Shown one piece after another: positions 24,647-61,182 of a stretch of 64,000 nt of DNA (its first letter is position 1; every line of letters begins with the position of its first letter). The stretch is from a bacterium (GTDB taxonomy: Bacteria > Patescibacteriota > Minisyncoccia > Moranbacterales > GWC2-37-73). Where the stretch lies: positions 39,411-103,410 of the forward strand of contig QKEW01000011.1 in assembly GCA_003251635.1 (NCBI GenBank), in the 5' to 3' direction. Position numbers and translations under genes: made by a program. The notes under the pieces were generated by a model that worked only from the letters and a program-made list of their open reading frames with translations, did not search any database and was not told the DNA's origin.

Positions 24647-25624
24647 ATGAAAACATCTGAAAAAATCCTACAATATATAACCGAAAAAAAGCAAGTAACC
24701 GTGCATGAGTTGGTTGACTATTTGGAAATTAGCCGAATGGCGGTTTCCAAACAGCTCAGCAATCTTATATCTGAAGGAAAAATAAATAAAACCGGAAAGC
24801 CACCCAAAGTGTTTTATTTTATTGCTGCTGAAAAAGATGAGTTGGAAAAAGGCAGTATCAAGATTGACCCAAAAATAAAAAATATTATAGAAAAAAACTT
24901 TCTGCTTATAACTCCATTTGGCCAACGATTGGAAGGATTGGAAGGTTTTATTTATTGGTGTCGGAAAACCAATCAATCAATTGAAAAATCGGCCGGTGAA
25001 TATGCGGACACGTGGAAAAAATATGATAAATTTAAGAAAAGCGGTTTGATTGATGGAATGGAAAAATTCAAACAAACTTTCAAGACAATTTATTTGGACA
25101 AGGTTTTTTATTTGGATTTTTACAGTATTGAGCGGTTTGGAAAAACGAAACTTGGCCAACTTTTATTGTATGCCAAACAGAGTCAAAATCGCAAGCTAAT
25201 AAAAGAATTAACTCAAATAATAAAACCGCAGTTGGATCATTTGCTCAAAAAATTCAATATAGACGGGATTGGTTTTATTCCCCCGACGGTAAAGCGCGAA
25301 GTTCAATTTATGAAGGAATTGGAAAAAAATTTACACCCAGACTTAAAAAAAGTATCTATTGTGAAAGTCCAATCAGACATAATGGTTCCCCAAAAAACCC
25401 TGAACAAATTGAAGGATCGTGTTGAAAATGCCAAAAGAACGATTGTTGTTGATGAATCAAGAAATTTTGAAAATATCTTGTTGGTGGATGATGCGATCGG
25501 TTCAGGAGCGACTCTCAATGAAACGGCGGAAAAAATCAGAGCTAGGGGCATTTGCCGAGGAAAAATAATCGGGCTTTCAATAACGGGAAGTTTCAAGGGT
25601 TTTGATGTTATAAATGAAGTTTGA
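24647..25624 (+). CDS. Winged-HTH plus phosphoribosyltransferase (ComF/PRTase type I-like) fusion protein (cargo gene 2)
   Basis: N-terminal wHTH (VTVHELVDYLEISRMAVSKQLSNLISEGKI). C-terminal PRPP-binding motif ILLVDDAIGSGATLNETAEKIRARG. Confidence 0.65.
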   Translation: MKTSEKILQYITEKKQVTVHELVDYLEISRMAVSKQLSNLISEGKINKTGKPPKVFYFIAAEKDELEKGSIKIDPKIKNIIEKNFLLITPFGQRLEGLEGFIYWCRKTNQSIEKSAGEYADTWKKYDKFKKSGLIDGMEKFKQTFKTIYLDKVFYLDFYSIERFGKTKLGQLLLYAKQSQNRKLIKELTQIIKPQLDHLLKKFNIDGIGFIPPTVKREVQFMKELEKNLHPDLKKVSIVKVQSDIMVPQKTLNKLKDRVENAKRTIVVDESRNFENILLVDDAIGSGATLNETAEKIRARGICRGKIIGLSITGSFKGFDVINEV

Positions 25625-25769
25625 CCAGGTCCGAGTCCCTTCGAAGCTTACTTGGCGGTTTTGAAGAGGTGAGAATGGCTGAAATTTGGTGAAAATAAAA
25701 AGGGATTAGATATCTTTATCAATCGTAGTTGTGATATAATTCAAACATAGTTAGTTCTGCCTAGCTTGT

Positions 25770-25832
25770 GGCGGCGCCATGCTGGAGTACCTCAGCGGCA
25801 ATCAAATGCCGGGGATTGAGGGGTTGAAATAA
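25770..25832 (+). repeat. Full-length degenerate copy (C) of the pgk 3' end, including the stop codon
   Basis: In the pgk frame it translates to GGAMLEYLSGNQMPGIEGLK*, against native GGAMLEYLSGNPMPGIEGLK*. Confidence 0.85.
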
Positions 25833-25855
25833 TTTTGTTTAGCTTAAAAATAAAA

Positions 25856-26611
25856 ATGAATAAAAAAACAAAAATAATCAGTGTGGTCGTGGTTATGGTT
25901 CTGCTGTTAGCATCTTCCTTGTATTTTCTTTTTCTGACAAAAAATAAGGAAAATAAAAACGAGGAAAATGGTGTGGCTGAAGCTGAGGCAGTAAAAGTGA
26001 ATGAAGAAAATTTTTGTTTGAAGTTTAATGAAAAAGGAGTTGAATATGTTGATCAGGAAATCGAAGCTTTAGTGAGTAGATATGCAAGTGCCAATGGTTC
26101 AGTTATTTCAAAAAACGAAATCTGTGCTTCTTTGTTGGCTGGTCGTGATTTGGCCTCGGACCTTGGAGATGAAGAGTTTTATAGTAAAGTGTTTACAGGT
26201 GAACCTGAAATTGAAGAGGGGATTATAAATAAATTGGAAGTATATATTGGGAGAACCAGAGCCGAAGAGGTTACTGAAGAATTATTTAGAGAAGCCAATG
26301 ATAAAAATGAGGAGCTCTTACTTAAAACACAAATCATTATGACATCTCCATATGCATTATTGTGTATTAGGGACAAAGGGTTTCTCACGGAGCCAAAATC
26401 AGGAGATCCTATATGTTTAAATAAAGTGAATGCTGATGATGTCTGGCCGAAAATAGAAGAAGAATATGGAGCCCAGTGGGGCGGGTGTGATTTTGCTATA
26501 GATAAAAGCAACAATACTTTTCAATACTGCGCAAAGGATATAAAGAATGACATTCTTTATAAATGCACGGAGAGTGGATGTGAAGAGGTGGTTGATACGG
26601 AGGATTTTTAA
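25856..26611 (+). CDS. Hypothetical exported Cys-rich protein with a signal-anchor
   Basis: N-terminal TM (IISVVVVMVLLLASSLYFLFL), then an acidic domain with about 8 Cys. The track start at 25835 is a TTG; ATG 25856 is more likely. An extended -10 (TGATATAAT) sits at 25732-25740. Confidence 0.5.
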   Translation: MNKKTKIISVVVVMVLLLASSLYFLFLTKNKENKNEENGVAEAEAVKVNEENFCLKFNEKGVEYVDQEIEALVSRYASANGSVISKNEICASLLAGRDLASDLGDEEFYSKVFTGEPEIEEGIINKLEVYIGRTRAEEVTEELFREANDKNEELLLKTQIIMTSPYALLCIRDKGFLTEPKSGDPICLNKVNADDVWPKIEEEYGAQWGGCDFAIDKSNNTFQYCAKDIKNDILYKCTESGCEEVVDTEDF

Positions 26612-28617: not shown

Positions 28618-29799
28618 ATGAAAAAAAAGAAACAGCGAAAAAAAGATTTGCTGGCCACCTTTTTTCTAATAGGCTGCGCTTTGTTTAGCTTGGGGGCCTA
28701 TTATTTTTTGGCGAGTGAAAAAAAGACTAATATTTTAGACGGTCGCGAAGTTGAAATTGAAAATATTGAACAAAGCGGATTGGGAATAATGGATGAAATT
28801 GAAGAGGAAATTCTGGAAAACGATGCTGAAAATTTACAAGTAATTGAATTGGATGAAGAAAGTGAAACGGAGACGGAAAATCCAGCAATAGAAGTGGGAG
28901 GATTGGAGGTGGATGAATCTTTGATTGGAGATAATGTTCTTTTTCCGGCCAGGGCTTTCTCGGTCCCTAAAGTCAAAAGAAATGATCCAGATGAAATTCG
29001 AATCGGTTTTATTACTGATTTGCATGTTCGCAGTGATGCGGATGAGATTGGCAATCGTTATTTTAAGCAAAGATTTACTGATCGAATCAACTATTTTGTG
29101 GAAAAAATGAATGATGATTTTGTGCCCAATTTTATTTTGGTTGATGGGGATTTGATTGAAGGCACCAATGTTTCTCCGGACAAGGGTTTTGTGGAGTTGT
29201 CTTTAATAAAGCAACTTTTTGATCAAACTATTTTGTCAAAATATTGGGTGATTGGTAATCATGATTTGCGCTCGGTAAACAAAGAACAATTCAAAAAAGC
29301 TTTGGATATTGATTATACTAGTAAAGCTTTTGAAGTTGGAAATTATAAGATTATAATTTTGGATAGTAATTTTGATGAAAATGACGAAGATATTGTTCCG
29401 GGTGAATATTATACGCGCGGGCATCTGTCCCAATATCAGATTAATTTTCTCGAGAATGAGTCGAAAAATACCGACAAGCGAGTTTTGGTTTTTGTTCATC
29501 ATCCAATACTGTGGGATATGAACGGCTTGTCTAATAACAAGTTTCCAGATAATACACTGAAAGTTCGGGAAATTTTTTCTGAAAATAGCGTCCTGGGAGT
29601 TTTCTCTGGGCATATCGAAGATTTATTTTTTGGTAAAATGGACGGAGTGAACTATTTCGTTTCACCTGGAATTGAGAAAAATGAGAAATACCAAGGAACT
29701 TTCTGTGAAATTACCATCAAAAAAAGCAAAATAACCATTGAAATGACTTATCTGAAAAAAGGTAAATATAAAACTGTGAAAATTGAAAGAGAGGAATAA
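28618..29799 (+). CDS. Membrane-anchored calcineurin-like metallophosphoesterase
   Basis: N-terminal TM. Metal-binding motifs GFITDLH, VDGDLIEG, VIGNHD, VFVHHP and GHIE. Confidence 0.75.
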   Translation: MKKKKQRKKDLLATFFLIGCALFSLGAYYFLASEKKTNILDGREVEIENIEQSGLGIMDEIEEEILENDAENLQVIELDEESETETENPAIEVGGLEVDESLIGDNVLFPARAFSVPKVKRNDPDEIRIGFITDLHVRSDADEIGNRYFKQRFTDRINYFVEKMNDDFVPNFILVDGDLIEGTNVSPDKGFVELSLIKQLFDQTILSKYWVIGNHDLRSVNKEQFKKALDIDYTSKAFEVGNYKIIILDSNFDENDEDIVPGEYYTRGHLSQYQINFLENESKNTDKRVLVFVHHPILWDMNGLSNNKFPDNTLKVREIFSENSVLGVFSGHIEDLFFGKMDGVNYFVSPGIEKNEKYQGTFCEITIKKSKITIEMTYLKKGKYKTVKIEREE

Positions 29800-29822: not shown

Positions 29823-29850
29823 TTGACATTTTCAAAAGACCTGTTAATAT
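29823..29850 (+). promoter_or_regulatory. Strong sigma-70 promoter (TTGACA, 16 nt, TGtTAATAT extended -10) driving the ncRNA candidate
   Basis: The -35 lies at 29823-29828. The TGn at 29842-29843 plus TAATAT at 29845-29850 form an extended -10. Confidence 0.6.
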
Positions 29851-29857
29851 AGTTGCA

Positions 29858-30210
29858 GATCTTTTTCATAACGAGGTCGTGGCCTTTGGTCACGGTTTTA
29901 TCTAGTGATCGGGGGCTCTTCGGGTAGGGGGGATTGCTAGATAAAATGGAATTGGGTGTGTCTAGGTTTATTTTTTAGCTCATCCAATTCTACCTCGGCC
30001 GTTTAAAGTCTTGCTTGCGCGCTATTACTTCCAAACCGTTCGGTTGTTCGATTAACAACACCTGCTAGCGGAATTGGTCTGTTAGAGGGGTGTGCGAAGT
30101 GTGCGCGCAAGCAAGTTAATGAAAAAACAAACCTTGATAGGTCAACATGGGGTTCATGATTTGAACCCGTAATGTTATCGTTGAAGCTATCAAGGTTTTT
30201 ATTTTTGCTT
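29858..30210 (+). ncRNA. Structured ncRNA candidate of about 350 nt, family unassigned. It is GC-rich and multi-domain, bounded by its own promoter and an intrinsic terminator.
   Basis: Nested long-range helices: CGAGGT/ACCTCG (29872-77 with 29993-98), ATCTAG/CTAGAT, a 13-bp helix CTTGCTTGCGCGC/GCGCGCAAGCAAG (30001-13 with 30093-105), and an 11-bp terminal helix AACCTTGATAG/CTATCAAGGTT (30140-50 with 30188-98) followed by TTTTATTTTT. A C-UUCG-G tetraloop is present. No long ORF in sense. GC is well above the window average. Strand is inferred from the promoter and terminator. Confidence 0.5.
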
Positions 30211-30254
30211 GAAACCCTTGGGACCTTTTGAGGATTTTGAAAAAATGATATAAT

Positions 30255-31382
30255 TTGAACATGAAAATCGGAATTGATGCGCGTTTTTTCGGACCCATTG
30301 GCAAGGGTCTGGGACGCTATGCGCAAAAACTAATTGAAAATCTGGAGAAAGTTGATCAGGAAAATGACTATGTCATTTTTTTGCGCAAGGAAAATTTTGC
30401 CGACTATGTGCCAAAATCACCAAACTTTAAGAAGGTCTTAGCTGATTATCGCTGGTATGGTTTTGGTGAACAACTTTTTTTTCCAATTTTGCTCTATCGG
30501 CAACGTCTGGATGTCATGCATTTTCCGCATTTCAATGTCCCGCTTTTGTATCGCAAAAAAATAATAGTGACCATTCATGATCTGATTTTGTTGCATTTCC
30601 CAACTTTGCGAGGCACAACCTTGAGCCCGCTTTGGTATAAGATAAAATTTTTAGCCTACAAGCTAACGATCGGATCTGCTTTGCGTCGAGCCCGAAAAAT
30701 TATTGCAGTTTCCCAGTCGACTAAAAAAGACATTTTGAAAAATTATTCGATAAGTCCGGAAAAAATTGATGTGACTCATGAGGCGGTTGATCCTCTTTGC
30801 TATTTTTCGCTAGAGTCGACAGATAAAGTTTTGGAAAGATATGGAATAATTGGCCCCTATCTTCTCTATGTTGGCAATGCTTATCCGCATAAAAATTTGG
30901 AAAAATTGATCGAGGTTTTTGCTCGGTTGAGAAAAAATAAATCTGAAATGAATTTAGTTTTGGTTGGAAAGGAAGATTTTTTTTATCGACGACTCAAGGA
31001 GTTGGTCGAGAAAAATGAAATCAAGGGGGTGATTTTTCCTGGGTTTATTTCAGATGAGGATTTGAGTTCGGTTTATCGCCGGTGTGAAGCCTATGTTTTT
31101 CCTTCTTTGTATGAGGGGTTTGGTTTGCCGCCGTTGGAAGCAATGCTTTTGGGGGTGCCAGTTTTGAGCAGCGATCATTTTTGTATGAAAGAGGTTTTAG
31201 GCGAAAGTGCACTTTTTTGTGACGCAAAAAATAACGAATCATTATTGAAAGGCCTGGAAAGAATAATAGATGATCAAGCTCTGCGAAAGAATTTGATTGA
31301 AAAAGGTTATCTCCAGAGTCTTTTATATAGTTGGCAACAGATGGCTGGGCAAACGCAAAAAAATTACCAGGAAATAAAATAA
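30255..31382 (+). CDS. Glycosyltransferase, family 4
   Basis: YVFPSLYEGFGLPPLEAMLLGVPVLSSD (EX7E motif). The track start is a TTG; ATG 30261 (MKIGIDARFF) is more likely. Confidence 0.8.
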   Translation: MNMKIGIDARFFGPIGKGLGRYAQKLIENLEKVDQENDYVIFLRKENFADYVPKSPNFKKVLADYRWYGFGEQLFFPILLYRQRLDVMHFPHFNVPLLYRKKIIVTIHDLILLHFPTLRGTTLSPLWYKIKFLAYKLTIGSALRRARKIIAVSQSTKKDILKNYSISPEKIDVTHEAVDPLCYFSLESTDKVLERYGIIGPYLLYVGNAYPHKNLEKLIEVFARLRKNKSEMNLVLVGKEDFFYRRLKELVEKNEIKGVIFPGFISDEDLSSVYRRCEAYVFPSLYEGFGLPPLEAMLLGVPVLSSDHFCMKEVLGESALFCDAKNNESLLKGLERIIDDQALRKNLIEKGYLQSLLYSWQQMAGQTQKNYQEIK

Positions 31383-47782: not shown

Positions 47783-47826
47783 GTCAGTACGCACGTACTG
47801 ACGAACGTACGTACGTTCGTACTGAC
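47783..47826. repeat. GTAC/ACGT-rich compound palindrome (copy 2): GTCAGTACGCACGTACTGACGAACGTACGTACGTTCGTACTGAC
   Basis: It shares the 28-nt core ACGTACTGACGAACGTACGTACGTTCGT with copy 1. Its outer arms GTCAGTACG and CGTACTGAC are reverse complements of each other. Confidence 0.8.
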
Positions 47827-47860: not shown

Positions 47861-48052
47861 GTGGGATTGGATAAAATCAAAAACAAAATGCAAAAATTTG
47901 AAAGAAAGCTGGGAAAAACTTCCAGTCATAGCTATAACATAGTGATTCCCAAGGAAATTGTTGAAAAATATGGTTGGAAAGAGAAACAAAAAATTTCCAT
48001 TGTGGATAAGGGTCATGGCAAGATTGAGATTAGGGACTGGAAAAAACGTTGA
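47861..48052 (+). CDS. Small SpoVT/AbrB-like (looped-hinge helix) DNA-binding protein; orphan antitoxin-like
   Basis: 63 aa. YNIVIPKEIVEKYGWKEKQKISI resembles the AbrB/MazE swapped-hairpin motif. No adjacent toxin gene. Confidence 0.45.
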   Translation: MGLDKIKNKMQKFERKLGKTSSHSYNIVIPKEIVEKYGWKEKQKISIVDKGHGKIEIRDWKKR

Positions 48053-51758: not shown

Positions 51759-54674
51759 ATGAGCGAAATGTCTGGCGATAATTTAGATAATAAAGATGAA
51801 AAAAATAAAAAACCAGATGGAAATTCTGTTGAGGCTGTTGATGCGGAAATGATAGGGGATGTTGAAAGTGGCCCTGACAAAGAAGAATCCAGAGAAGATC
51901 CGATGGAAAAATGGAAAGACGACGCTGGTCTTTATTTGAAACCGGAAGATTTTGATAAGTTAGCGAGATTGCTTGGCGACAAATTTAATTGGAAAGAATT
52001 TTTTGATTTCTTTACGAGCCGGACAAATGACAAAATAAGAACATGGGAGAAAAAAAGGACAAAAATAGAGAATTACGACAGCTTTAAGCTTGATGTTGCT
52101 AGCCTCATGGAAGAATTTTTTAGGGGTAAGGTAGAAAATGTTGGTGAATTTTTAGTTGAAAATAAAGACTTAATGGATAAACTAAAAAATCTTGTTAAGG
52201 AAAAACATCCCTCCGCAAATACATTGAAAGCTTTTTTTGAGGGGAGAATAAAAAACTATGACTCTAGAAAAGAATTAATTAAAAAGGATGATTTTTTCGG
52301 TTTGGTTGGAAAAATTTTTCCAGGTATATTTGATGATTTTGAAGAAAGTGTAATAGAAGAGTTTTTGAAAAGTCAAGAATCTGGCACTAGCGATAAAATT
52401 AAAAGTCTTTTAGAAGATTATTTTGCTAAGAATTTAGGAAAAAATCCAAACAAGGAAGCGGCTACAAAATGTGTTCAAGATTTTTGTCGTGATCCTGAAA
52501 TTCTTACGAAAATAAAGGAGGAAATTTCACCAGATGATTCAGAAGTTTTTGGAGCTATCAGTGATTTAATTTCTGCAATTGGTCAGAAGGATATTCAAAA
52601 AGTTTTACTTCAACATAAAGAGTTAGAAAAAGATAAACAAAAGAAAGCTGAACCTGAAGATAAGCCAAATCAGGATGGTCAACCAAATTCTCGGCAGCCA
52701 GTTCAGGAGCCGGGAAATGCGCCAGCCTCGAATCCAAATCCAGATCCGATTCAACAATCGCAGCCTAATTCGCAACCGCAACCGCAAGAAGCGCAACCGC
52801 AAGAAACTCAAATTCAAGAGCCGCAACCGCAGGAGCTTCGACCACAGCAGCCAGCTCGAGTGGAAAGTTCCAATCCAAATCCTGAACTAAGTCCGGAGCA
52901 GGAAAAAGCCAAGCACGAGCAGGAGCGAAAAAATTTGAAGGCTGATATTGAAGCTACACGCCAAGACTATCTCGAAGCTTATTACCAAAAAAGAACTTGG
53001 ATCGGAAAATTCAAAAGCGCTCTTTGGGATAATGTCAGTCCGGTGGAGGCAGAAAATCGAAGCAGGGATGTCATGCGTCAGGACCTGGACTTTTTCAAAA
53101 GCAGATATGACCAAGCTCTCAAAAAATATCAAGAATTTTTGGTGGAGGAAGCTAAGATAGATGATCCTGCTTCTGCTAGTGGTGGAAAAATGATCGACAA
53201 CAAAAAATTTGCTGAGATTGCTAAAATTTTCAATCTGGAAGCTAAAGTAGAATTGGCTAAAAATTATAATGAGCTGAAGGCTGGCAAAATAGAGGGCCGG
53301 GTTCTGGGGTGGCTGCGCAAAGCTTCCAAGGGATATGGTGAATTAGTCAAAAAGCATCCTGTTATGGTTGGGCTAACTTCTTTGGCCTTAGTTTTGACTA
53401 ACCCAGCCTTGGGAGTTGGAATTGGAGGCAAAGCAGTTTCGGTTTTGTTTGTTAAAAAAATGTTAGTGGCTGGTTTGACTGGCGGAAGAGTTTTGGATTG
53501 GGCAGAGGAAAAAACCCAAAAAAATCGAGAAAAAGAAGCTAAAAAAGATGAGGCAGACTTAGAAAAAGAATTGAAGGGAGTTAATAGTTTAGAGAGCTTA
53601 ACTAAGCTTAATGAAAAACTGGATGGAATTATTTCGCAAGATAAGAACAGAATTGTTGATACGGCTAAAAATAAACAGCTCCGCAACATTTTGGCCGGAT
53701 CTGCGGTTGGTGGAACTTTGGGATTTTGGATCTTAAATCAATATGCGGAGAAATTTTTTGGAGCCGATCTTCACGGTAGTAAGGAGATTTTGAGATCCAA
53801 ACTGGAAACGGTGACGATAACTCAAGGCAGTGGAAATGGAACCAGTTTTGAACAGGTCTTAACTAAATATGTTAGAGGCAGGGAGTCTTGGTTGGTTGAT
53901 AAATATCCGGATTTGAAAGGGCTAAACACACAGCAAATTGTTGCGCGTATATCTTCGGATTATCGAATTGATCACCACGGCGGATATCCCGGAATGCTTA
54001 ATTCGGGTGATAAATTGAAAATTAATTTTGATTTTCAACAGGGTCAACCTTTTGAGAACGGAATTAGGATTGACGTAGTCAGGGGTGAAGCTCCGGTTAA
54101 TTTGGCAGCTGAGACGGCTCAAGATCATTCAGTTCACGAGGCAGTCTCAAATCATGCTAACAAGGCAGCTGATTTAGATGGACAAAAACCATCGGCGACA
54201 ACAGAAAAAGTAGCTAATGGTGCAGATTCAAAAATGCATTTCAAGTCGGAAGCTCTTAATGGCAAGCATCAGGATTTTCTACGTTGGAGTGACACTGTTT
54301 CCTGGCAAGATTATAGTCGGGGTTTTGGCAGAGGGATTATGCCGGATAGCTATTTATTGAGTGAAGCAAAAGCCTTGAAAGTTTTGGAAGGAAACCCTGA
54401 AGAATGGGGTAAATTTAAAGAGTTTGTGCGCAGAATTAGATATGATATTAGCGGTGAGAATCTAGCCAGATGGCAGCTAATTGGGGATATGCCAGCAAAC
54501 AGAATTGCTGCGATTGAGGACCATTTGTCTGGAAGTGGAAAAGAATTGTTTGAAAGATTTATGAATGACCCACACACTCCAAAGCCATTAAACGGGGAAC
54601 CGTTCAGTTATTATTTGCGTCGGGCGGTTCGAGTTTCTCTAGAGCAACGCAGAGCCGAATCATTAGCTGGATAA
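51759..54674 (+). CDS. Large hypothetical protein (971 aa) with an acidic N-terminus, a Pro/Gln-rich tandem-repeat linker and two internal hydrophobic segments
   Basis: Residues about 300-365: PNSQPQPQEAQPQETQIQEPQPQELRPQQP, which in DNA is CAACCGCAA-type repeats at about 52660-52860. Hydrophobic stretches VMVGLTSLALVLTNPALGVGIGG and AGSAVGGTLGFWIL. No catalytic motif recognised. Confidence 0.55.
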   Translation: MSEMSGDNLDNKDEKNKKPDGNSVEAVDAEMIGDVESGPDKEESREDPMEKWKDDAGLYLKPEDFDKLARLLGDKFNWKEFFDFFTSRTNDKIRTWEKKRTKIENYDSFKLDVASLMEEFFRGKVENVGEFLVENKDLMDKLKNLVKEKHPSANTLKAFFEGRIKNYDSRKELIKKDDFFGLVGKIFPGIFDDFEESVIEEFLKSQESGTSDKIKSLLEDYFAKNLGKNPNKEAATKCVQDFCRDPEILTKIKEEISPDDSEVFGAISDLISAIGQKDIQKVLLQHKELEKDKQKKAEPEDKPNQDGQPNSRQPVQEPGNAPASNPNPDPIQQSQPNSQPQPQEAQPQETQIQEPQPQELRPQQPARVESSNPNPELSPEQEKAKHEQERKNLKADIEATRQDYLEAYYQKRTWIGKFKSALWDNVSPVEAENRSRDVMRQDLDFFKSRYDQALKKYQEFLVEEAKIDDPASASGGKMIDNKKFAEIAKIFNLEAKVELAKNYNELKAGKIEGRVLGWLRKASKGYGELVKKHPVMVGLTSLALVLTNPALGVGIGGKAVSVLFVKKMLVAGLTGGRVLDWAEEKTQKNREKEAKKDEADLEKELKGVNSLESLTKLNEKLDGIISQDKNRIVDTAKNKQLRNILAGSAVGGTLGFWILNQYAEKFFGADLHGSKEILRSKLETVTITQGSGNGTSFEQVLTKYVRGRESWLVDKYPDLKGLNTQQIVARISSDYRIDHHGGYPGMLNSGDKLKINFDFQQGQPFENGIRIDVVRGEAPVNLAAETAQDHSVHEAVSNHANKAADLDGQKPSATTEKVANGADSKMHFKSEALNGKHQDFLRWSDTVSWQDYSRGFGRGIMPDSYLLSEAKALKVLEGNPEEWGKFKEFVRRIRYDISGENLARWQLIGDMPANRIAAIEDHLSGSGKELFERFMNDPHTPKPLNGEPFSYYLRRAVRVSLEQRRAESLAG

Positions 54675-54698
54675 GTTTATAATTAATCAAGAAATAAA

Positions 54699-55016
54699 AT
54701 GGATAATATCAACGAAGATTTGAAAAAAAAGGCTCTCGACCAGTTGGTTGAGGATCTGGGTATGAATGATTTACCGCAAGATAAAAAGGATGAACTTTTG
54801 GCCAAGATATCTGAAGCTTTTTTGGGTCGAATTTTTGTGGAGGTTATGGAAAAAATTGGCGAAGATGGTCGGGATGAATATGAGAAGTTGATGGAAAAAA
54901 ATCCCGAGCCACAGGAGGTGGACAAATTTTTTGCCAGCAAGATTGAGAATTATGATGGATTTGTAACTAAAGTTGCTCAAGATTTTAAAGAGGAATTAAC
55001 CAATGATCAGTTATAA
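54699..55016 (+). CDS. Small acidic hypothetical protein (105 aa)
   Basis: Tightly spaced between the 971-aa gene and the next acidic protein. High D/E content. Confidence 0.45.
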   Translation: MDNINEDLKKKALDQLVEDLGMNDLPQDKKDELLAKISEAFLGRIFVEVMEKIGEDGRDEYEKLMEKNPEPQEVDKFFASKIENYDGFVTKVAQDFKEELTNDQL

Positions 55017-55034
55017 TAATTAAGACAAAAGATT

Positions 55035-55469
55035 ATGGAACCAGTAGTAAATCAAGATCCGAAAGAATCTTCCGAAAAAATTGAATTTAAGATGGAAACT
55101 TTGTCTGATGAGTCTCCAAATAAAGAAATTTTTGCTGACGAAAAAGAAAAGGTTTCTGAGAAAAGTTCGGCGGAAAAGGATGCGGCCTACAATCAAATCC
55201 TTTCCAAGCTTAGTGACGATGATGATAGTGATGATAAAAAAGGTTCCGGAGATGTGATCGGTGATGCTGAAAAAGCTTCGCAAAAAACTGACGCAGCTTC
55301 GCAAATTCAGCACTTGGTGGACGTCGCTTCAGTTAAAGGCGTTGTGCACGCGGTTAAGGTGGCGCGACATTTGGAAGATAATTATGTGCTCGATGCTTTT
55401 CATGATAAGTTGATGGCTGATGAGCTGCATGATGCTTTGGTGAAAAAGGGTTTATTGAAAAATTCCTAA
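55035..55469 (+). CDS. Small acidic hypothetical protein (144 aa) with a poly-Asp/Ser stretch
   Basis: SDDDDSDDKKGSGD low-complexity region with a conserved-looking C-terminal helical segment. It immediately precedes the P-loop ATPase. Confidence 0.45.
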   Translation: MEPVVNQDPKESSEKIEFKMETLSDESPNKEIFADEKEKVSEKSSAEKDAAYNQILSKLSDDDDSDDKKGSGDVIGDAEKASQKTDAASQIQHLVDVASVKGVVHAVKVARHLEDNYVLDAFHDKLMADELHDALVKKGLLKNS

Positions 55470-55511
55470 GCATATTTTTTAGGTTAATAAAAATAAAAAT
55501 ACAAAAACAAG

Positions 55512-57980
55512 ATGGATTTTTTTGATTTTAATTTGATTCTGGTGCCACTCTCAATTTTATTGGCTTTCGCTACTTTTATTGTGGGCGGACTTTTGGTTTT
55601 GAAGAGCTTTTTTGGTTTTCGAGGTGAGATCAGTCGTTCGGTCAATATGGATCTGGAAATGGTCAAAATCGCCAAGGTTTTTCGAAACAAAAAAGAGCAC
55701 GAAAATCCAGAGACTTGGAAGGAAGAGATTGGAGCCATGGAGCAACTCCTAGGGACGTTAGCTAATATGAAAGATAAGTCCTCCATGATCCGTCATTTTT
55801 TCTACGGCAGTCCCCATGTGAGTTTGGAACTGGCTCAGCCGGCTAATAGTGAAGAGATCCTTTTCTATTTAGCGGTGCCAAAAAGATTTCGCGAAAGTAT
55901 TGAAAAACAGATTCATAGTTATTTTCCGGAAGCGTCTATTGAAAAAGTTTCTGATTATACGATTTTTTCTCCCGGTAGTTTCACAGCCTGTGCTACACTG
56001 GGCTTAAAAAACACTTTCGCTTTGCCGGTGGTCACTTATGAAGATATGGATGTTGATCCTCTCAGTGAAATTTCCAACGCTCTGAGTAAATTGCATGATT
56101 TTGAAGAGGGAGCAGTGATTCAATTGGTTTTGCGACCGGCTGGAATTTCTTGGCGAACCAAGGGTCGGGAAATTGCCCATAAGATGCAACAAGGCAAGCA
56201 GCTTAAAGATGCCTACAATAGTTCGTTTCTTTGGGATTTGGGCAAGGATGTGGTAAAAACCATGCAAGCAAAACCAGGAGAAATGGTTAAAAGTCCAGAG
56301 TCTGTCCAATTAACTCCGGAGGAGCAAGAATTAGTCAAAGATATTGAAAGAAAATCCAGCAAAGTAGCTTTTCGGGCCAATGTCAGAATTTTGGCTTCAG
56401 CTAAAACTCAGCAAAGAGCTGACGATATTTTGTCGCATTTGGAAAATTCTTTTTCCCAGTTTGAAAATGCCGGAGTCAATCATTTCACTATTCGAACTCG
56501 AACTAAAGACAAGAAAATTGCTTTTGATTATATCTTCCGTAATTTTAATGAAGAAAACGCCATGATTTTGGGAGTGGAGGAAATTGCCAGTATTTTTCAT
56601 TTTCCAATTTCTACTACCGAAACTCCAAAAATCAAATGGCTTAAGGCTGGTGCGGCTCCGCCTCCGCCCAATGTTCCCAAAGAAGGTTTGCTTTTGGGTT
56701 ATAATGATTATCGCGGACTCAAGACGGATATTCGCATGACGGATAATGATCGGCGCCGACATCTCTATACTATCGGTCAAACTGGAGCGGGGAAATCAAA
56801 TTTCTTGCAAGAACTGGCCAAGCAAGATGCTAAGAATGGCAAAGGATTTTGTTTTATTGATCCGCATGGAGACGCAATTGAAGATATTTTGACCGCTATT
56901 CCAAAGGAACGGGCTGAAGATGTGATTGTTTTTGATCCTTCGGATGTGGAGCGTCCTTTTGGTTTGAATATGTTGGAATATGATCCAGCTAATCCTCAAC
57001 AGAAAACTTTCGTAGTCAATGAGATGATTGGAATCTTTGATCAACTCTATGATTTGAAAGCGACCGGTGGTCCAATGTTTGAACAATACGTGCGCAATGC
57101 CATGCTTTTGATTATGGAGGATCCTGAGTCCGGTTCAACTTTGATGGAAATTTCCAAGGTTTTGGCGGATGAAGAATTTCGTCGCATGAAACTGTCCAAA
57201 TGCACCAATCCGGTAGTGCGAGATTTTTGGATCAAGGAAGCGGAAAAGGCTGGGGGCGAGGCGGCTTTGGCTAATATGGTGCCCTACATTACTTCAAAAT
57301 TGACTAGCTTCATTTCCAATGACATGATGCGTCCGATTATTGCTCAACAAAAAAGCACTTTGAATTTTCGCGAAATCATGGATACCGGTAAGATTTTATT
57401 GGTCAAGCTTTCCAAAGGGAAGATTGGCGAAATCAACGCTCATCTGCTCGGTATGGTGATTGTGGGCAAGATTTTGATGAACGCTTTGGCTCGAGTGGAT
57501 ATACCAGAAAATCAGCGGCGGGATTTTTATCTTTATTTGGATGAGTTTCAAAATGTGACTACGAATTCAATTTCGCAGATTCTCTCGGAAGCTCGTAAAT
57601 ATCGTTTGTGCCTGGTTATTGCGCACCAATTCATCGGACAGCTTAGTGAAGAAATTTCCAAGGCGGTTTTCGGTAACGTTGGTTCAATGTGTGTTTTTCG
57701 AGTCGGTCCGGAGGATGGGGAATTTTTGGAAAAGCAGTTTTCGCCGGTTTTTGCAGCCGATGATCTGGTGAATGTTGATAATTACAATTGTTTCACTAAA
57801 ATGTTGATTAATAATGAACTTTCCAAGCCATTCAGCATGAAAACCTATCCGCCGACTGAAGGTGATCAAAAAATTGCCAATTATCTCAAGGAACTTTCAC
57901 GCCTCAAATATGGCCGTGACGCCAAGATTGTGAACATGGAAATTATTGAGAGGACCAAATTGGCGGAGAGTGTTAGATAA
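55512..57980 (+). CDS. Membrane-anchored FtsK/HerA-superfamily P-loop ATPase, most similar in motif layout to type IV coupling proteins (VirD4/TraG/TraD-like)
   Basis: Two N-terminal TM helices. Walker A RRHLYTIGQTGAGKSNFL, followed by CFIDPHGD. Walker B FYLYLDEFQNV. Q/arginine-finger region RLCLVIAHQFIGQL. 822 aa. Confidence 0.65.
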   Translation: MDFFDFNLILVPLSILLAFATFIVGGLLVLKSFFGFRGEISRSVNMDLEMVKIAKVFRNKKEHENPETWKEEIGAMEQLLGTLANMKDKSSMIRHFFYGSPHVSLELAQPANSEEILFYLAVPKRFRESIEKQIHSYFPEASIEKVSDYTIFSPGSFTACATLGLKNTFALPVVTYEDMDVDPLSEISNALSKLHDFEEGAVIQLVLRPAGISWRTKGREIAHKMQQGKQLKDAYNSSFLWDLGKDVVKTMQAKPGEMVKSPESVQLTPEEQELVKDIERKSSKVAFRANVRILASAKTQQRADDILSHLENSFSQFENAGVNHFTIRTRTKDKKIAFDYIFRNFNEENAMILGVEEIASIFHFPISTTETPKIKWLKAGAAPPPPNVPKEGLLLGYNDYRGLKTDIRMTDNDRRRHLYTIGQTGAGKSNFLQELAKQDAKNGKGFCFIDPHGDAIEDILTAIPKERAEDVIVFDPSDVERPFGLNMLEYDPANPQQKTFVVNEMIGIFDQLYDLKATGGPMFEQYVRNAMLLIMEDPESGSTLMEISKVLADEEFRRMKLSKCTNPVVRDFWIKEAEKAGGEAALANMVPYITSKLTSFISNDMMRPIIAQQKSTLNFREIMDTGKILLVKLSKGKIGEINAHLLGMVIVGKILMNALARVDIPENQRRDFYLYLDEFQNVTTNSISQILSEARKYRLCLVIAHQFIGQLSEEISKAVFGNVGSMCVFRVGPEDGEFLEKQFSPVFAADDLVNVDNYNCFTKMLINNELSKPFSMKTYPPTEGDQKIANYLKELSRLKYGRDAKIVNMEIIERTKLAESVR

Positions 57981-58197
57981 AAATACTTTATTTTAAGATT
58001 TTTCTTTTCGTGTTTTTTTAACTGGGCTCCGATTGACTTTCGGCTTATTTTTGCTATGATTATCTGAATAATAAAGGGTTCGTTAACAAGTTCTAAAAAA
58101 GACAGATTTAAAATTGAATGATGGATGATATTTCAAGCCATTGTTGTCTGACTGTTTGTCATGGTTGTGTCATTTTTTGAATTAAAGGAGAAATTGG

Positions 58198-58599
58198 GTG
58201 CCAAATAAAAATGAATTGGTTGGTGTTGGATCTTTTGTTTATTTATGTGAGCAAAAGATAATTCTTTACATAGAAGAAGCAACGCGGGAGAAAGACGGAA
58301 TTTTTGCCAAATGTTTGTCGTTGGATAATTTTGAGCGACACGAGTTGTCTTTTTCGTTTCCAAAAGGCGAAAGGTGCAAATCGGGAACCGTCCTAGTTTG
58401 TCATTTTGAAGGAGTGAAAATGGCATTGGATTGGGAAATTAAAAAAATAAGGCGAGGTAGGCTAGGCCAAGTGGCCGAGAAAAATCTACCTAAATATGTT
58501 GCAAGATTAAATGAGTTTTTTATCAACAAAAACTTAGCGAAAAAAAATTTATTTTCTCTGGAGATTCTAAAAAAAGATTTATATCAACCTGTTTGGTAA
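58198..58599 (+). CDS. Hypothetical protein (133 aa)
   Basis: ORF followed by the terminator-like hairpin AGCGATTCGGG-aaaaa-CCCGGTCGCT and a T-run at about 58690-58730. Confidence 0.4.
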   Translation: MPNKNELVGVGSFVYLCEQKIILYIEEATREKDGIFAKCLSLDNFERHELSFSFPKGERCKSGTVLVCHFEGVKMALDWEIKKIRRGRLGQVAEKNLPKYVARLNEFFINKNLAKKNLFSLEILKKDLYQPVW

Positions 58600-58750
58600 A
58601 AAGGAGGATTGGTGTGACATATGAAAGGATAGACTTAATTTTAGCCCCTGGCCCAGGCAAGATGAGTAAAGTTTGTATCGCAAGCGAAATAAAGCGATTC
58701 GGGAAAAACCCGGTCGCTTTTTTTATTTTAATTTTAGATTGATCTTGGAG

Positions 58751-58786
58751 CACGTACGTACGTCCGTCAGTACGTTCGTACGTACG
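58751..58786. repeat. GTAC/ACGT-rich palindromic element (copy 3): CACGTACGTACGTCCGTCAGTACGTTCGTACGTACG
   Basis: It shares a 20-mer with copy 1 at 19 of 20 positions (ACGTACGT[T/C]CGTCAGTACGT) and is flanked by self-complementary CGTACGTACG units. Confidence 0.75.
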
Positions 58787-58810
58787 AAAATAAAATCATT
58801 AAATTAAAAA

Positions 58811-58835
58811 ATCGCCACAGCGGCGATTTCTGGCT
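58811..58835 (-). terminator. Intrinsic terminator for the minus-strand 766-aa gene
   Basis: AATCGCC-acagc-GGCGATT hairpin. On the minus strand it is followed by TTTTTTAATTT. Confidence 0.6.
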
Positions 58836-58881
58836 TTAAGTAAAGGTAATTTTAAGGAATAGAAAATAAGGGTAAATTTTT

Positions 58882-61182
58882 TTATTCTGGCTTGAATGCC
58901 AAGATGGTTTTATCTAAGTTTAGGTAGATTTTTTTATTTTCTTCGTCGAAGGCCAGGTTTTGGGCTTGACCAATTTTTTCGTTTTGGAATTGTCGGACAA
59001 TTTGACCGCTGCTGTTAAATTCTATCAAGCGGGAGTTTTCGCGATCTAAAATAAAAATTCGCGCTTCATCTTCACTGGCAATGACTTGATCGAAATTGAT
59101 TAGTGTTTGAGAATCTTCAAATTTGAGGTTTGTTTGGCGTCCCTGGGATAATTGGAGTAGTTTATTTTTTTGAGCCAATAGCAGATTCTCACTAACTGCC
59201 AAATCTTGAGTTGAGTTCAAATCAATCTTGTCCTTGAGCCAGTCAGTTTTTTGTCCAAAGCCGCCTTCAGCTCGCGGAAAGCGGTAAATTTGATTGTTTT
59301 GAGCATCTAACAAATAAATATAGGTCAGATAGGTGGCGATGAATTTTATTTTACTATCGGAAGGAATATCAATCGATTCGGTCTTGATTTCTTTGGATAA
59401 GGGGGAAAAGGAAATGAGCTGGTTTTGATCAGTTAAGGTGAAAACCAAATTTAGATCAGGCATGAATGTGGCGGCTTGAAACTTTCCGCTTTCAGCGGGA
59501 AAATCAAAAGTCTGCCAATTTTTTGAGTTTTGATCAAAAATAGATACGCTTTTGTCGTTGACCGCCAAAAGAGAATCTTGGGGGGCAAATATTTTTTTTG
59601 CTGCAATTGAAGTCGGAATGCTTTCGAAGTTTGAATCTTCTAGAAAAGCCATGTTTTTTTCCTGGTCATATTTTGAAGTTGGATTCGTGGCGGTTGGCGC
59701 GGTTTCGATGTTCTCAATGGAGTTGGAATTTTTTTGTTCGGAATCGGATCGGGAGAAAAACATTGGCAAGAAAATGATTAAGGCCAATGCGATCAAGGCA
59801 TAGAGCTTTTGTTTTTTACTCAGTTTTAGAAATAAATTGGCGATTTTTTTCAGGTGAGGCAAGGCGAAGCTGGAAATTTTTTGAAAGAAGCGAGTCAGTT
59901 TTGTGGTGATTGGATCGGATTTGAATTGCAGATTGAAAGATTGGATCGAGGGTGTTTCAATGCCATTTATTTTTTCAGATGATTGTGGATGACCGGGCTT
60001 TTCTTGTTGGTAGGACTCAAAATCGGTATTTTTAGTTTTTTTTTCTAACTCGGAAAAATCATTTTTTGTTTTGAGTGAATCAAGTTTATTTTTTGCAGCC
60101 TCAATATGGGATTTGTAGTCATGAGAGTAGACGTCTTGGAAAAACTTTTTGGTTTTGCGTCTGAGCCAATTGAATTGTTTGCGTAGGGAAATTTTGAGGT
60201 TGTCGAAAAAATTGAAAGTAAGCTCTTGGAATATTTGCCAGTTTTCATTCAAGCGACTTTCTTTATTTTCACCAGATTTGTTTTCATCCGGACTTTGAAT
60301 GTAGATGTGGCCAGTTTTTTTGTCGGTATATTCAGCGGCTTCTTGTTTCGAAATAGCATCTTCAATGGTTTGTTCCCGGTAATTGGGATCGCCATTTTCA
60401 CTCTGTCGGTTTTGTACAAAAGCTTTTTGACTAAAAACATTCAAGTCGTCAGCTTTCTTTTGGGATTTATTTGCGCCAAAGGTTGCGGACGCTTCATTCT
60501 TGGGCGGCTCACTGATGTCAACAACCACGGTGCCGGCCAGATCCAGTTCGTTCGTTAGGGCTGTTTTGAGGAATTGAACAAACTTTTCTTTTTCTAGGCG
60601 AGCCAAGTTTTTCTTTAATTCCTTTATAGAAAGGATTTGAAAAATATCATCAGAAGTTATGACTAGTCTGTCATCTTTTTCCAGGCGGCCACTGGAAACA
60701 TTGATGAAAGTTTCCAAAGGATTGAGTTTTTCGGGTGATTCCTCGGCTAGATCGGCTGTGATTTCTGTTAGAAAGTTATTGCGAAAAAGTAAAATCTTAG
60801 CTTTGCCGGTAACGGCAAAATGCAAGTTGTTTTTTTCCAAAACACAAATAGCACTGTCTAGTTTTCCTAGCCACTTGATGTTTCCGTGTTTGGCCAGCTC
60901 AGAAAGAGCAAGGTTAACCTTGTTTAGGGCAGCATCAAAGCTTTCTACTACCGGTCTTTTGCTGTTTAAATAATACTCCTTTTTTAAAACGGAATTGAGA
61001 AAATTGACGATATAGGCGCTTTCTTCGCTATATTCGCGAATTTCAAACAATCCAGTCAAGCAGCCCAATTGTTTTTGGGTAATGTTTTCTGGAGCATATT
61101 GAAAAATTTCGATGTAGGGCTTGAGGTTTTTGTTATTAACCACCAAAATAGGGGAAATTTCTTTTTCCATAGTTTGAGTCAC
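58882..61182 (-). CDS. Hypothetical bitopic membrane protein with a cytoplasmic degenerate PP2C/SpoIIE-like N-domain, a central coiled/charged region, a TM helix and an extracytoplasmic repeat-like C-domain
   Basis: The N-terminal about 200 aa follow the PP2C block order (..SAICVLEKNNLHFAVTGKAKILLFRNN..ITSDDIFQIL) but lack the metal-binding Asp residues. TM helix LYALIALALIIFLPMFF at about residue 465. 766 aa. Confidence 0.45.
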   Translation of the reverse strand: MTQTMEKEISPILVVNNKNLKPYIEIFQYAPENITQKQLGCLTGLFEIREYSEESAYIVNFLNSVLKKEYYLNSKRPVVESFDAALNKVNLALSELAKHGNIKWLGKLDSAICVLEKNNLHFAVTGKAKILLFRNNFLTEITADLAEESPEKLNPLETFINVSSGRLEKDDRLVITSDDIFQILSIKELKKNLARLEKEKFVQFLKTALTNELDLAGTVVVDISEPPKNEASATFGANKSQKKADDLNVFSQKAFVQNRQSENGDPNYREQTIEDAISKQEAAEYTDKKTGHIYIQSPDENKSGENKESRLNENWQIFQELTFNFFDNLKISLRKQFNWLRRKTKKFFQDVYSHDYKSHIEAAKNKLDSLKTKNDFSELEKKTKNTDFESYQQEKPGHPQSSEKINGIETPSIQSFNLQFKSDPITTKLTRFFQKISSFALPHLKKIANLFLKLSKKQKLYALIALALIIFLPMFFSRSDSEQKNSNSIENIETAPTATNPTSKYDQEKNMAFLEDSNFESIPTSIAAKKIFAPQDSLLAVNDKSVSIFDQNSKNWQTFDFPAESGKFQAATFMPDLNLVFTLTDQNQLISFSPLSKEIKTESIDIPSDSKIKFIATYLTYIYLLDAQNNQIYRFPRAEGGFGQKTDWLKDKIDLNSTQDLAVSENLLLAQKNKLLQLSQGRQTNLKFEDSQTLINFDQVIASEDEARIFILDRENSRLIEFNSSGQIVRQFQNEKIGQAQNLAFDEENKKIYLNLDKTILAFKPE

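Follow-up and report, generated by a model that had tools for sequence, protein, structure and literature searches.

A putative stand-alone gene for a highly structured RNA of ~350 nt between a metallophosphoesterase gene and an envelope operon of a Moranbacteria genome

The window described in this article is a 64-kb stretch of DNA (64,000 nt of contig QKEW01000011.1) and represents a gene-dense chromosomal segment, mostly of + strand genes, from Candidatus Moraniibacteriota (Patescibacteria/candidate phyla radiation, CPR). A gap between its metallophosphoesterase (MPE) gene and a gene for a GT4-family glycosyltransferase appears to hold a stand-alone gene for a stable and highly structured noncoding RNA (ncRNA) of ~347 nt, which is read from the + strand and is specific to this Moranbacteria lineage. 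On the strength of the predicted fold and of the signals that flank it, this reading is given a probability of roughly 0.55. A preliminary description of the same DNA had proposed a structured RNA candidate of ~350 nt that carries promoter and terminator motifs of its own and belongs to no recognized family, and all of these elements are indeed present.

By its motifs, the region qualifies as an independent transcription unit, with a sigma-70-type promoter ahead of the structure and an intrinsic terminator behind it, both on the strand of the structure. The two signals are composed as follows.
29823..29850, + strand: sigma-70-type promoter with the −35 element TTGACA (29823-28), a 16-nt spacer, and the −10 element TAATAT (29845-50).
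29842-50, + strand: extended −10 element TGtTAATAT with the TG at 29842-43.
Near A29857, + strand: predicted transcription start as placed by the promoter spacing; from here to the T-run, the transcript would measure ~347 nt.
30129..30206, + strand: extended intrinsic terminator with a 12-bp basal stem AAACCUUGAUAG/CUAUCAAGGUUU (30129-30140 / 30187-30198).
Inner part of the terminator, + strand: nested 7-bp hairpin GGGUUCA-UGAUU-UGAACCC, with the T-run TTTTTATTTTT at 30196-30206.

The promoter agrees with the TTGACA, 16 nt, TGnTAATAT arrangement given in the preliminary description and exhibits 10 of 12 consensus matches in addition to the TG extension. It is the sole site in 64 kb that combines TTGACA with an extended −10 element (TGnTAnnnT), for which 0.18 matches are expected by chance and at least one occurs in 16% of shuffles. 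The weight of the promoter evidence comes from its position and orientation and not from the motif alone. A plain TTGACA-N-TATAAT site is also found ahead of the gene at 24647; thus, the organism appears to make use of such promoters. The terminator module folds with −29.6 kcal/mol (z −6.6). It was missed by a consensus terminator scan because its “loop” is a 46-nt nested hairpin. The 11-bp terminal helix and T-run that were first noted here are present, with the stem extended to 12 bp around this nested hairpin. An A-tract upstream of the terminator gives it a bidirectional appearance.

The predicted RNA consists of two branched domains, which are joined by a short linker and enclosed by a common closing helix. 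Its parts are listed below in their sequential order.
29862..29869, + strand: 5′ strand of helix P1, UUUUUCAU, which pairs with AUGAAAAA and encloses domains A and B.
29872..29997 (126 nt), + strand: domain A, a four-way junction without unpaired junction bases in the single-sequence fold.
29872-77 / 29992-97, + strand: 6-bp closing helix of domain A, CGAGGU/ACCUCG.
Within domain A, + strand: hairpin A1 of 7 bp with a UUU loop.
29895-29910 / 29932-29947, + strand: hairpin A2 of domain A, 16 bp, including the ATCTAG/CTAGAT helix.
Apex of hairpin A2: G-rich, GGGGG-CUCUUCGGGU-AGGGGGG, with two exposed G-runs.
Within domain A, + strand: hairpin A3 of 11 bp with a U-rich apex.
29998..30009 (12 nt), + strand: single-stranded linker GCCGUUUAAAGU between the domains, with an unpaired probability of 0.7-0.99.
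30010..30115 (106 nt), + strand: domain B, a three-way junction of −51.0 kcal/mol with a GC content of 0.52.
30010-30022 / 30103-30115, + strand: closing helix of domain B, CUUGCUUGCGCGC/GCGCGCAAGCAAG, 13 bp, perfect and G+C-rich.
Within domain B, + strand: two pentaloop hairpins, GUUGUU-CGAUU-AACAAC and CUAGCGGA-AUUGG-UCUGUUAG.
30119..30126, + strand: 3′ strand of P1, AUGAAAAA, which forms the 8-bp closing helix with 29862-69.

The minimum free energy (MFE) of the 361-nt segment 29850-30210 is −144.4 kcal/mol compared with −96.5 ± 5.5 kcal/mol for dinucleotide shuffles, which corresponds to a z-score of −8.8, and 0 of 100 shuffles folds as well as the real sequence. The reverse complement folds to only −105 kcal/mol versus −144 kcal/mol on the + strand. 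The MFE structure contains 126 pairs over 349 nt (61 A-U, 52 G-C, and 13 G-U), meaning that 72% of the bases are paired, and almost every helix has pairing probabilities near 1 in the ensemble, which is monostable. P1 likewise reaches an ensemble pairing probability of ~1, yet, predicted from one sequence and composed of A-U pairs throughout, it is the least secure of the helices. Each module is significant alone, with z-scores of −8.0 for domain A, −6.6 for domain B, and −6.6 for the terminator. In these folding models, the structure of the RNA is well beyond chance, both as a whole and per domain. The helices listed in the preliminary description recur in the fold, namely the 6-bp helix that closes the first domain, the ATCTAG/CTAGAT helix as part of the 16-bp helix of A2, the UUCG loop, and the GUUGU-loop-ACAAC hairpin. 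The perfect 13-bp helix is present as well, and its position differs by ~10 nt from the span 30001-30105 assigned to it before.

The strand from which the structure is read can be deduced from its imperfections. Only two 1 × 1 mismatches occur in the MFE fold, a U-U and an A-G, and there are no A-C mismatches. Neutrally decaying DNA palindromes would give approximately equal numbers of G-U and A-C oppositions; hence, the ratio of 13:0 points to an RNA that is read from the + strand. As modeled, the asymmetry is that expected of selection on an RNA, or of an origin from RNA, and not that of a DNA palindrome. Domain A contains nine of the 13 G-U pairs and folds with −56.4 kcal/mol, its reverse complement with only −31.1 kcal/mol. 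The same observations bear on the view that the gap contains no functional element, being composed of chance or neutral inverted repeats, or that it instead encodes one or more very small proteins. This view is very improbable. Its first variant can draw on the absence of a homologue in the searches made, and it is opposed by the z-score of the whole, by three modules that are independently significant, by the G-U excess on the + strand, by the matched promoter and terminator, and by the tight packing of the genome, in which 455 nt of junk would be unusual.

The second variant of this view, in which small proteins are encoded, leads to the gap itself, which is delimited by two genes.
28618-29799: calcineurin-like MPE gene (PF00149) with its stop at 29799.
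30261-63, + strand: ATG of the gene for the GT4-family glycosyltransferase, the first gene of a GT4-DUF4012-MurJ envelope operon.

Ahead of MPE lie PGK, two unknown genes, and ArgRS, and the gap is followed by GT4, DUF4012, MurJ, and enolase. Between the MPE stop (29799) and the GT4 ATG (30261), the gap measures 455-461 nt rather than the 400 nt first reported. The earlier statement that it lacks a credible open reading frame (ORF) stands for all frames, and its longest ORFs are antisense or without support. The genes inspected in this window lack Shine-Dalgarno sequences, so small ORFs, for example, the 17-codon ATG ORF at 30120-30173, cannot be dismissed on the grounds of their ribosome-binding sites. 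Two very large protein searches speak against them. A six-frame pseudo-protein query against 5.8e9 proteins returned no homologue and no called gene, and the matches of a 70-aa antisense ORF in a HMMER search of 1.84e9 representatives were confined to long, repetitive, and unrelated proteins. The Shine-Dalgarno sequence was recognizable in 0 of 13 inspected genes (starts between 20.7 and 39.4 kb), and the 25 nt ahead of each of the 13 start codons are simply A/T-rich. Judged from these starts, the organism seems to initiate translation largely without Shine-Dalgarno pairing.

The RNA region has a GC content of 0.436 compared with a window mean of 0.383, which places it at the 92nd percentile among windows of the same size. 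It thus lies above most intergenic gaps, which mostly range from 0.24 to 0.37 with one (25625-25834) at 0.44, and the difference is modest, so that the earlier wording “much more GC-rich” was an overstatement. Nonetheless, it is the sole long ORF-free gap in 64 kb that pairs a raised G+C content with a strong structure (z −8.6). The remaining ORF-free gaps are A+T-rich and weakly structured or, in the case of 25625-25834 (GC 0.44), weakly folded. Other long gaps in the window hold small genes, which encode a 54-aa MazE/AbrB-type protein and a 105-aa DUF5663 protein.

No known RNA family accounts for the structure. Rfam 15 gives no match at the gathering score in the 64 kb on either strand, and cmscan with permissive filters in the 651-nt region gives no credible match at E ≤ 10. 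The six subthreshold matches of this region belong to eukaryotic small nucleolar RNA and microRNA models or to unrelated small RNA models, with E values of 0.3-7 and scores far below the gathering scores. The families for which the preliminary description had called for a comparison (tmRNA, RNase P RNA, 6S RNA, OLE, GOLLD, HEARO, ROOL, and raiA) are absent at the gathering score, with none of relevance at E ≤ 10, and ARAGORN in tmRNA mode finds neither a tmRNA nor a tRNA. OLE, GOLLD, HEARO, ROOL, raiA, and all other Rfam 15 families were rejected on this basis.

A highly divergent housekeeping RNA that escapes the covariance models, meaning RNase P RNA, tmRNA, 6S RNA, or signal recognition particle (SRP) RNA, would be compatible with a length of ~350 nt, which lies within the range of RNase P RNA and tmRNA, and with the strong promoter and stable fold. 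In addition, 6S RNAs of poorly sampled phyla are often missed by Rfam. The hallmarks of these RNAs are not seen in the fold. In tmRNA, the paired 5′ and 3′ ends form a tRNA-like domain with a T-arm, and an internal tag reading frame is present; here, neither a model (RF00023, RF01849) nor ARAGORN gives a match, and the 3′ end is a terminator hairpin rather than an acceptor/T-arm. RNase P RNA contains a conserved P4 pseudoknot and a core of CR-I to CR-V. The window RNA matches neither of its models (RF00010, RF00011) at E ≤ 10, folds into two closed domains without long-range P4-type pairing, and lacks the motifs GGAAAGUCC and ACAGAA as well as any P4/CR-I sequence. 6S RNA consists of one elongated hairpin of ~150-200 nt that opens into a large bubble at its center, whereas the structure found here is branched, ~350 nt long, devoid of a large internal bubble, and without a match to RF00013. 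Domain IV (helix 8) of SRP RNA carries a GNRA-type tetraloop and conserved symmetric and asymmetric loops; the models RF00169 and RF01854 give no match, and the fold contains neither a GNRA tetraloop nor a domain IV motif. Detectable conserved blocks would furthermore be expected in relatives, and none appear in the loci and metagenome scans that were searched. The divergent housekeeping RNA that the preliminary description had offered as an option therefore finds no weak covariance-model match, no fitting fold, and no counterpart at either flank in the relatives examined, and we regard it as extremely unlikely.

RNAs that depend on a partner protein were likewise rejected (retron msr-msd, omega RNA of TnpB/IscB, IS110 bridge RNA, tracrRNA, and TIGR arrays). 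Such RNAs adjoin their cognate protein gene, and arrays also need tandem repeats. No cognate protein gene is found nearby: a Pfam scan of 30 other large ORFs (16.6-63.5 kb; the first 16.6 kb excluded) reveals no reverse transcriptase, TnpB/IscB, IS110 recombinase, Cas, or Tas protein, and the region contains no tandem or interspaced repeats or arrays. Complementarity of the exposed loops to the 46 gene starts in the window was not above background in a scan for trans targets. A literature search found no described CPR RNA of such kind.

The RNA immediately precedes an envelope-polysaccharide operon of the same orientation and ends in a terminator, which raises the question of a cis-acting 5′ leader (riboswitch or attenuator) of GT4-DUF4012-MurJ. 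The operon carries a promoter of its own after the terminator.
30246..30263, + strand: promoter of GT4-DUF4012-MurJ, separate from the RNA, with the perfect extended −10 element TGaTATAAT at 30246-30254 and the ATG 7 nt downstream.

Judged by this spacing, the mRNA of the GT4 operon is probably leaderless in this genome. Two relatives (L089:4955-5001 and L093:4960-5001) also contain a TGnTATAAT promoter, but with leaders of ~30-40 nt. The nearest relatives that lack the RNA (L089, L093, and L094) keep the order terminator, TGnTATAAT, GT4. The promoter of GT4 and the same layout in these relatives thus fix the 3′ boundary of the RNA unit and make the RNA independent of GT4. In a terminating riboswitch, terminator and antiterminator are mutually exclusive folds of comparable energy, and the downstream gene depends on read-through. 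The only candidate antiterminator (termed I2) involves a 16-nt segment of the A3 apex (29961-76), which would pair with 30122-37 and shows 88% complementarity to the terminator's 5′ arm. Its duplex amounts to only −8.1 kcal/mol, and enforcing it costs +27 kcal/mol relative to the MFE in an otherwise monostable ensemble. No riboswitch or leader family matches the region. A riboswitch/attenuator leader was rejected because of the cost of this sole alternative pairing, the monostable ensemble, and the GT4 promoter after the terminator. The related assumption of a structured 3′ untranslated region (UTR) that stabilizes the ArgRS-MPE transcript gains from the MPE gene having, by inspection, no convincing terminator of its own, so that transcripts probably enter the region; ~350 nt with a near-consensus promoter of their own would be atypical of a 3′ UTR. 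Leader and 3′ UTR taken together are an improbable explanation.

The search for relatives covered 94 related loci (~0.69 Mb) around homologues of GT4 and MPE. The GT4 side is represented by 75 loci from GTDB genomes and by six more that contain the closest GT4 homologues (identities of 67% and 65%), and the MPE side by 13 loci from seven homologues. The nearest sampled relatives show 55-67% identity in the flanking proteins. Searches of the window and the 94 loci with nhmmer (--max) and blastn, as well as with covariance models built for each domain from the single sequence, matched only the window itself. A 22-nt blastn match in one locus (L057) lies inside a coding gene and was rejected as a chance match. 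Phage and plasmid collections yielded no match to blastn in distant mode. In IMG/VR, three degenerate multi-pattern scans and two exact DNA patterns gave no match, and neither did eleven 24-nt windows, degenerate at every third base, in two scans of JGI metagenomes; both had no positive control, as the contig of the window is not in either collection. At 55-67% protein identity, the divergence of a non-core RNA could be beyond the reach of exact-word methods.

The flanking genes on both sides have relatives in which the RNA is missing. On the GT4 side, GT4-DUF4012-MurJ is kept, and its upstream neighbor is another GT4 or a Wzz gene at a distance of 107-193 nt with no RNA in between. On the other side, MPE is in relatives the last gene of a GT2-GT4-GT4-MPE operon with a variable 3′ flank, which contains nothing (L083, L087, L088), an integrase (L086), or an unrelated noncoding element (L076, L080). 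No counterpart of the RNA was found at either flank in any related genome examined. The upstream and downstream gene orders diverge at this very place; hence, the RNA lies precisely at a break in synteny, and its position is not conserved. The flanking proteins on both sides have their best matches, without exception, in metagenome-assembled genomes of Moranbacteria (Moraniibacteriota), which gives no indication of a chimeric join. In L086:1412-3315, a hypothetical 241-aa gene and a tyrosine (phage-type) integrase are located between MPE and a hairpin that resembles the 16S 3′ end. Owing to this integrase, the 3′ flank of MPE looks like a hotspot of integration or recombination. The higher G+C content, the synteny breakpoint, and the variable, integrase-visited MPE 3′ flank in relatives together suggest that the RNA was acquired or born recently rather than being ancestral.

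The RNA may also be the remnant or the cargo of an element that was gained by horizontal transfer, such as a small island, a piece of a phage or plasmid, or a non-autonomous element, and that landed in a recombination hotspot 3′ of MPE; in this case, the RNA would be selfish, vestigial, or in the service of that element. This is an unlikely explanation. The exact synteny break argues for it, as relatives keep GT4-DUF4012-MurJ or GT2-GT4-GT4-MPE with other partners, and so do the variable MPE 3′ flank with the hypothetical gene and tyrosine integrase of L086, a G+C content above that of most other intergenic DNA, and the orphan distribution. An 11-nt T-rich direct repeat (TTTTATTCTTG / TTTTATTTTTG), the only repeat that flanks the unit, brackets it; it is a T-rich, terminator-like sequence that could have arisen by chance. 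Miniature inverted-repeat transposable elements occur in multiple copies per genome and are marked by terminal inverted repeats and a target-site duplication. The RNA sequence is single-copy within 64 kb and has no terminal inverted repeats. Moreover, no integrase, transposase, or other mobility gene lies within ~20 kb, and phage records, plasmids, and IMG/VR contain no match. An acquired element is also compatible with an expressed, functional RNA and concerns in part the origin of the RNA, so that it is only partly a true alternative to a stand-alone RNA gene.

In some relatives, a different noncoding element occupies the corresponding place.
L076:5150-5440 and L080:4239-4545: element X, a conserved noncoding stretch of ~300 nt that immediately follows the orthologous MPE gene.

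Element X also occurs in L077 and L081, and its first hairpin only in L078, L079, and L086. This hairpin, UCUCCC-ACGAAUCACCUCCUUUCUA-GGGAGA, presents a loop that copies the 3′ end of 16S rRNA (anti-Shine-Dalgarno; AUCACCUCCUUUCU), and its 3′ arm carries a Shine-Dalgarno-like GGGAG ahead of a mini-ORF of 3-4 codons. Between L076 and L080, the predicted helices of element X show seven compensatory pair changes. Several short-read contigs break at its hairpin. Element X and the window RNA share the position and orientation after the MPE stop, a similar length, an intrinsic terminator, the lack of an Rfam match, and a lineage-restricted occurrence. They differ in that no sequence or structure similarity is detectable and that the 16S-3′-end motif is absent from the window. 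Element X was therefore rejected as a homologue of the window RNA and is a positional analogue only.

Several points weigh against a stand-alone gene for a functional RNA. No homologue was found by any search, so there is no evidence from covariation, conservation, or function, and the negative scans of metagenomes and viruses lacked a positive control. The promoter match by itself is suggestive and not statistically decisive, given the 16% of shuffles with at least one such site. MFE folding counts G-U as pairs by construction, which somewhat inflates the contrast between G-U and A-C. Furthermore, long near-perfect helices, 72% pairing, and the lack of recognizable tertiary motifs are unusual in old conserved functional RNAs; the long near-perfect helices would fit a young or foreign element equally well. 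None of the predicted loops is a GNRA tetraloop, an 11-nt tetraloop-receptor sequence is not found by eye, and no pseudoknot is seen by inspection or in the MFE fold, the nested model of which cannot represent pseudoknots.

If the gap does contain a stand-alone RNA gene, the transcript would be made independently of its neighbors, would accumulate as a nuclease-resistant species, and would act in trans. Its most likely role would be that of a protein-binding scaffold or decoy that presents few exposed elements. Candidate contact sites are the two G-runs of the A2 apex, the U-rich A3 apex, the linker, and the domain B pentaloops. A ligand switch or a compact ribozyme seems less likely because the fold is monostable, neither GNRA tetraloops nor 11-nt receptors are seen by eye, and the helices are long and near-perfect. 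In a proposed likeness to 6S RNA, the window RNA would be an abundant, stable RNA with a strong sigma-70 promoter, a mostly double-stranded structure, and paired ends, which binds protein and not mRNA. It differs from 6S RNA by being approximately twice as long, by its two branched domains, and by the lack of a large central bubble that mimics an open promoter.

Large RNA classes such as raiA, OLE, and ROOL first drew attention because, within A+T-rich genomes, they formed intergenic islands of high G+C content and strong folding. The window RNA resembles raiA motif RNA, OLE, ROOL, and GOLLD in its length of several hundred nt, in its apparently stand-alone nature, in being more structured and G+C-rich than its A+T-rich surroundings, and in lacking an adjacent partner gene that would explain it. 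However, what defines these classes is covariation and conservation of junction nucleotides across hundreds of homologues, whereas the window RNA is a single sequence. It also differs from them in that it has no covariance-model match, no GNRA tetraloop or pseudoknot that was seen, and unusually long perfect helices. A bolder and rather doubtful proposition is that it represents the first sighted member of an undescribed class of ~350-nt two-domain RNAs of Moranbacteria and other CPR, which would act as a ribonucleoprotein scaffold or decoy and would have homologues in unsampled or unsearched genomes; together with element X, the MPE 3′ flank would then be a recurrent home of lineage-specific RNA genes. 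A single sequence without conservation cannot be called a new class, and the RNA is to be addressed as an unclassified candidate for a stand-alone structured RNA gene.

CPR/Patescibacteria have tiny and tightly packed genomes with very few known ncRNAs beyond the universal ones. In this genome, 455 nt are devoted to a candidate RNA of very high stability, and the promoter match ahead of it is among the best in the genome. If true, the RNA would offer a rare handle on RNA-based biology in uncultured episymbionts and a seed for a family search in Patescibacteria. Its present value is that of a well-defined target for metatranscriptomics and covariance-model searches and not yet that of a discovery.

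Some minor observations concern the remaining window. The second fairly G+C-rich gap, 25625-25834 (210 nt, GC 0.44), contains an extended −10 promoter, TGTGATATAAT, at ~25732-25742 and folds with a z-score of −1.6; it probably serves as the 5′ UTR of a gene with its start near 25835-25856. The block 51759-61179 consists of large proteins with no or weak Pfam matches and of interspersed small unknown ORFs. Its members include a protein of 971 aa, one of 822 aa with a subthreshold TrwB/type IV coupling-protein domain, and one of 765 aa on the opposite strand. This block could be a region related to pili, competence, or secretion, or a mobile region. Another apparent intergenic gap of 450 nt contains the unlisted gene of the 54-aa MazE/AbrB-type protein at 47888-48052 (PF04014, E 8e-8), which has no obvious toxin partner adjoining. 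Upstream of this gene lies a 44-nt composite palindrome rich in ACGT repeats (47783-47826; GTCAGTACGCACGTACTGAC GAACGTACGTACGTTCGTACTGAC), which may be its operator.

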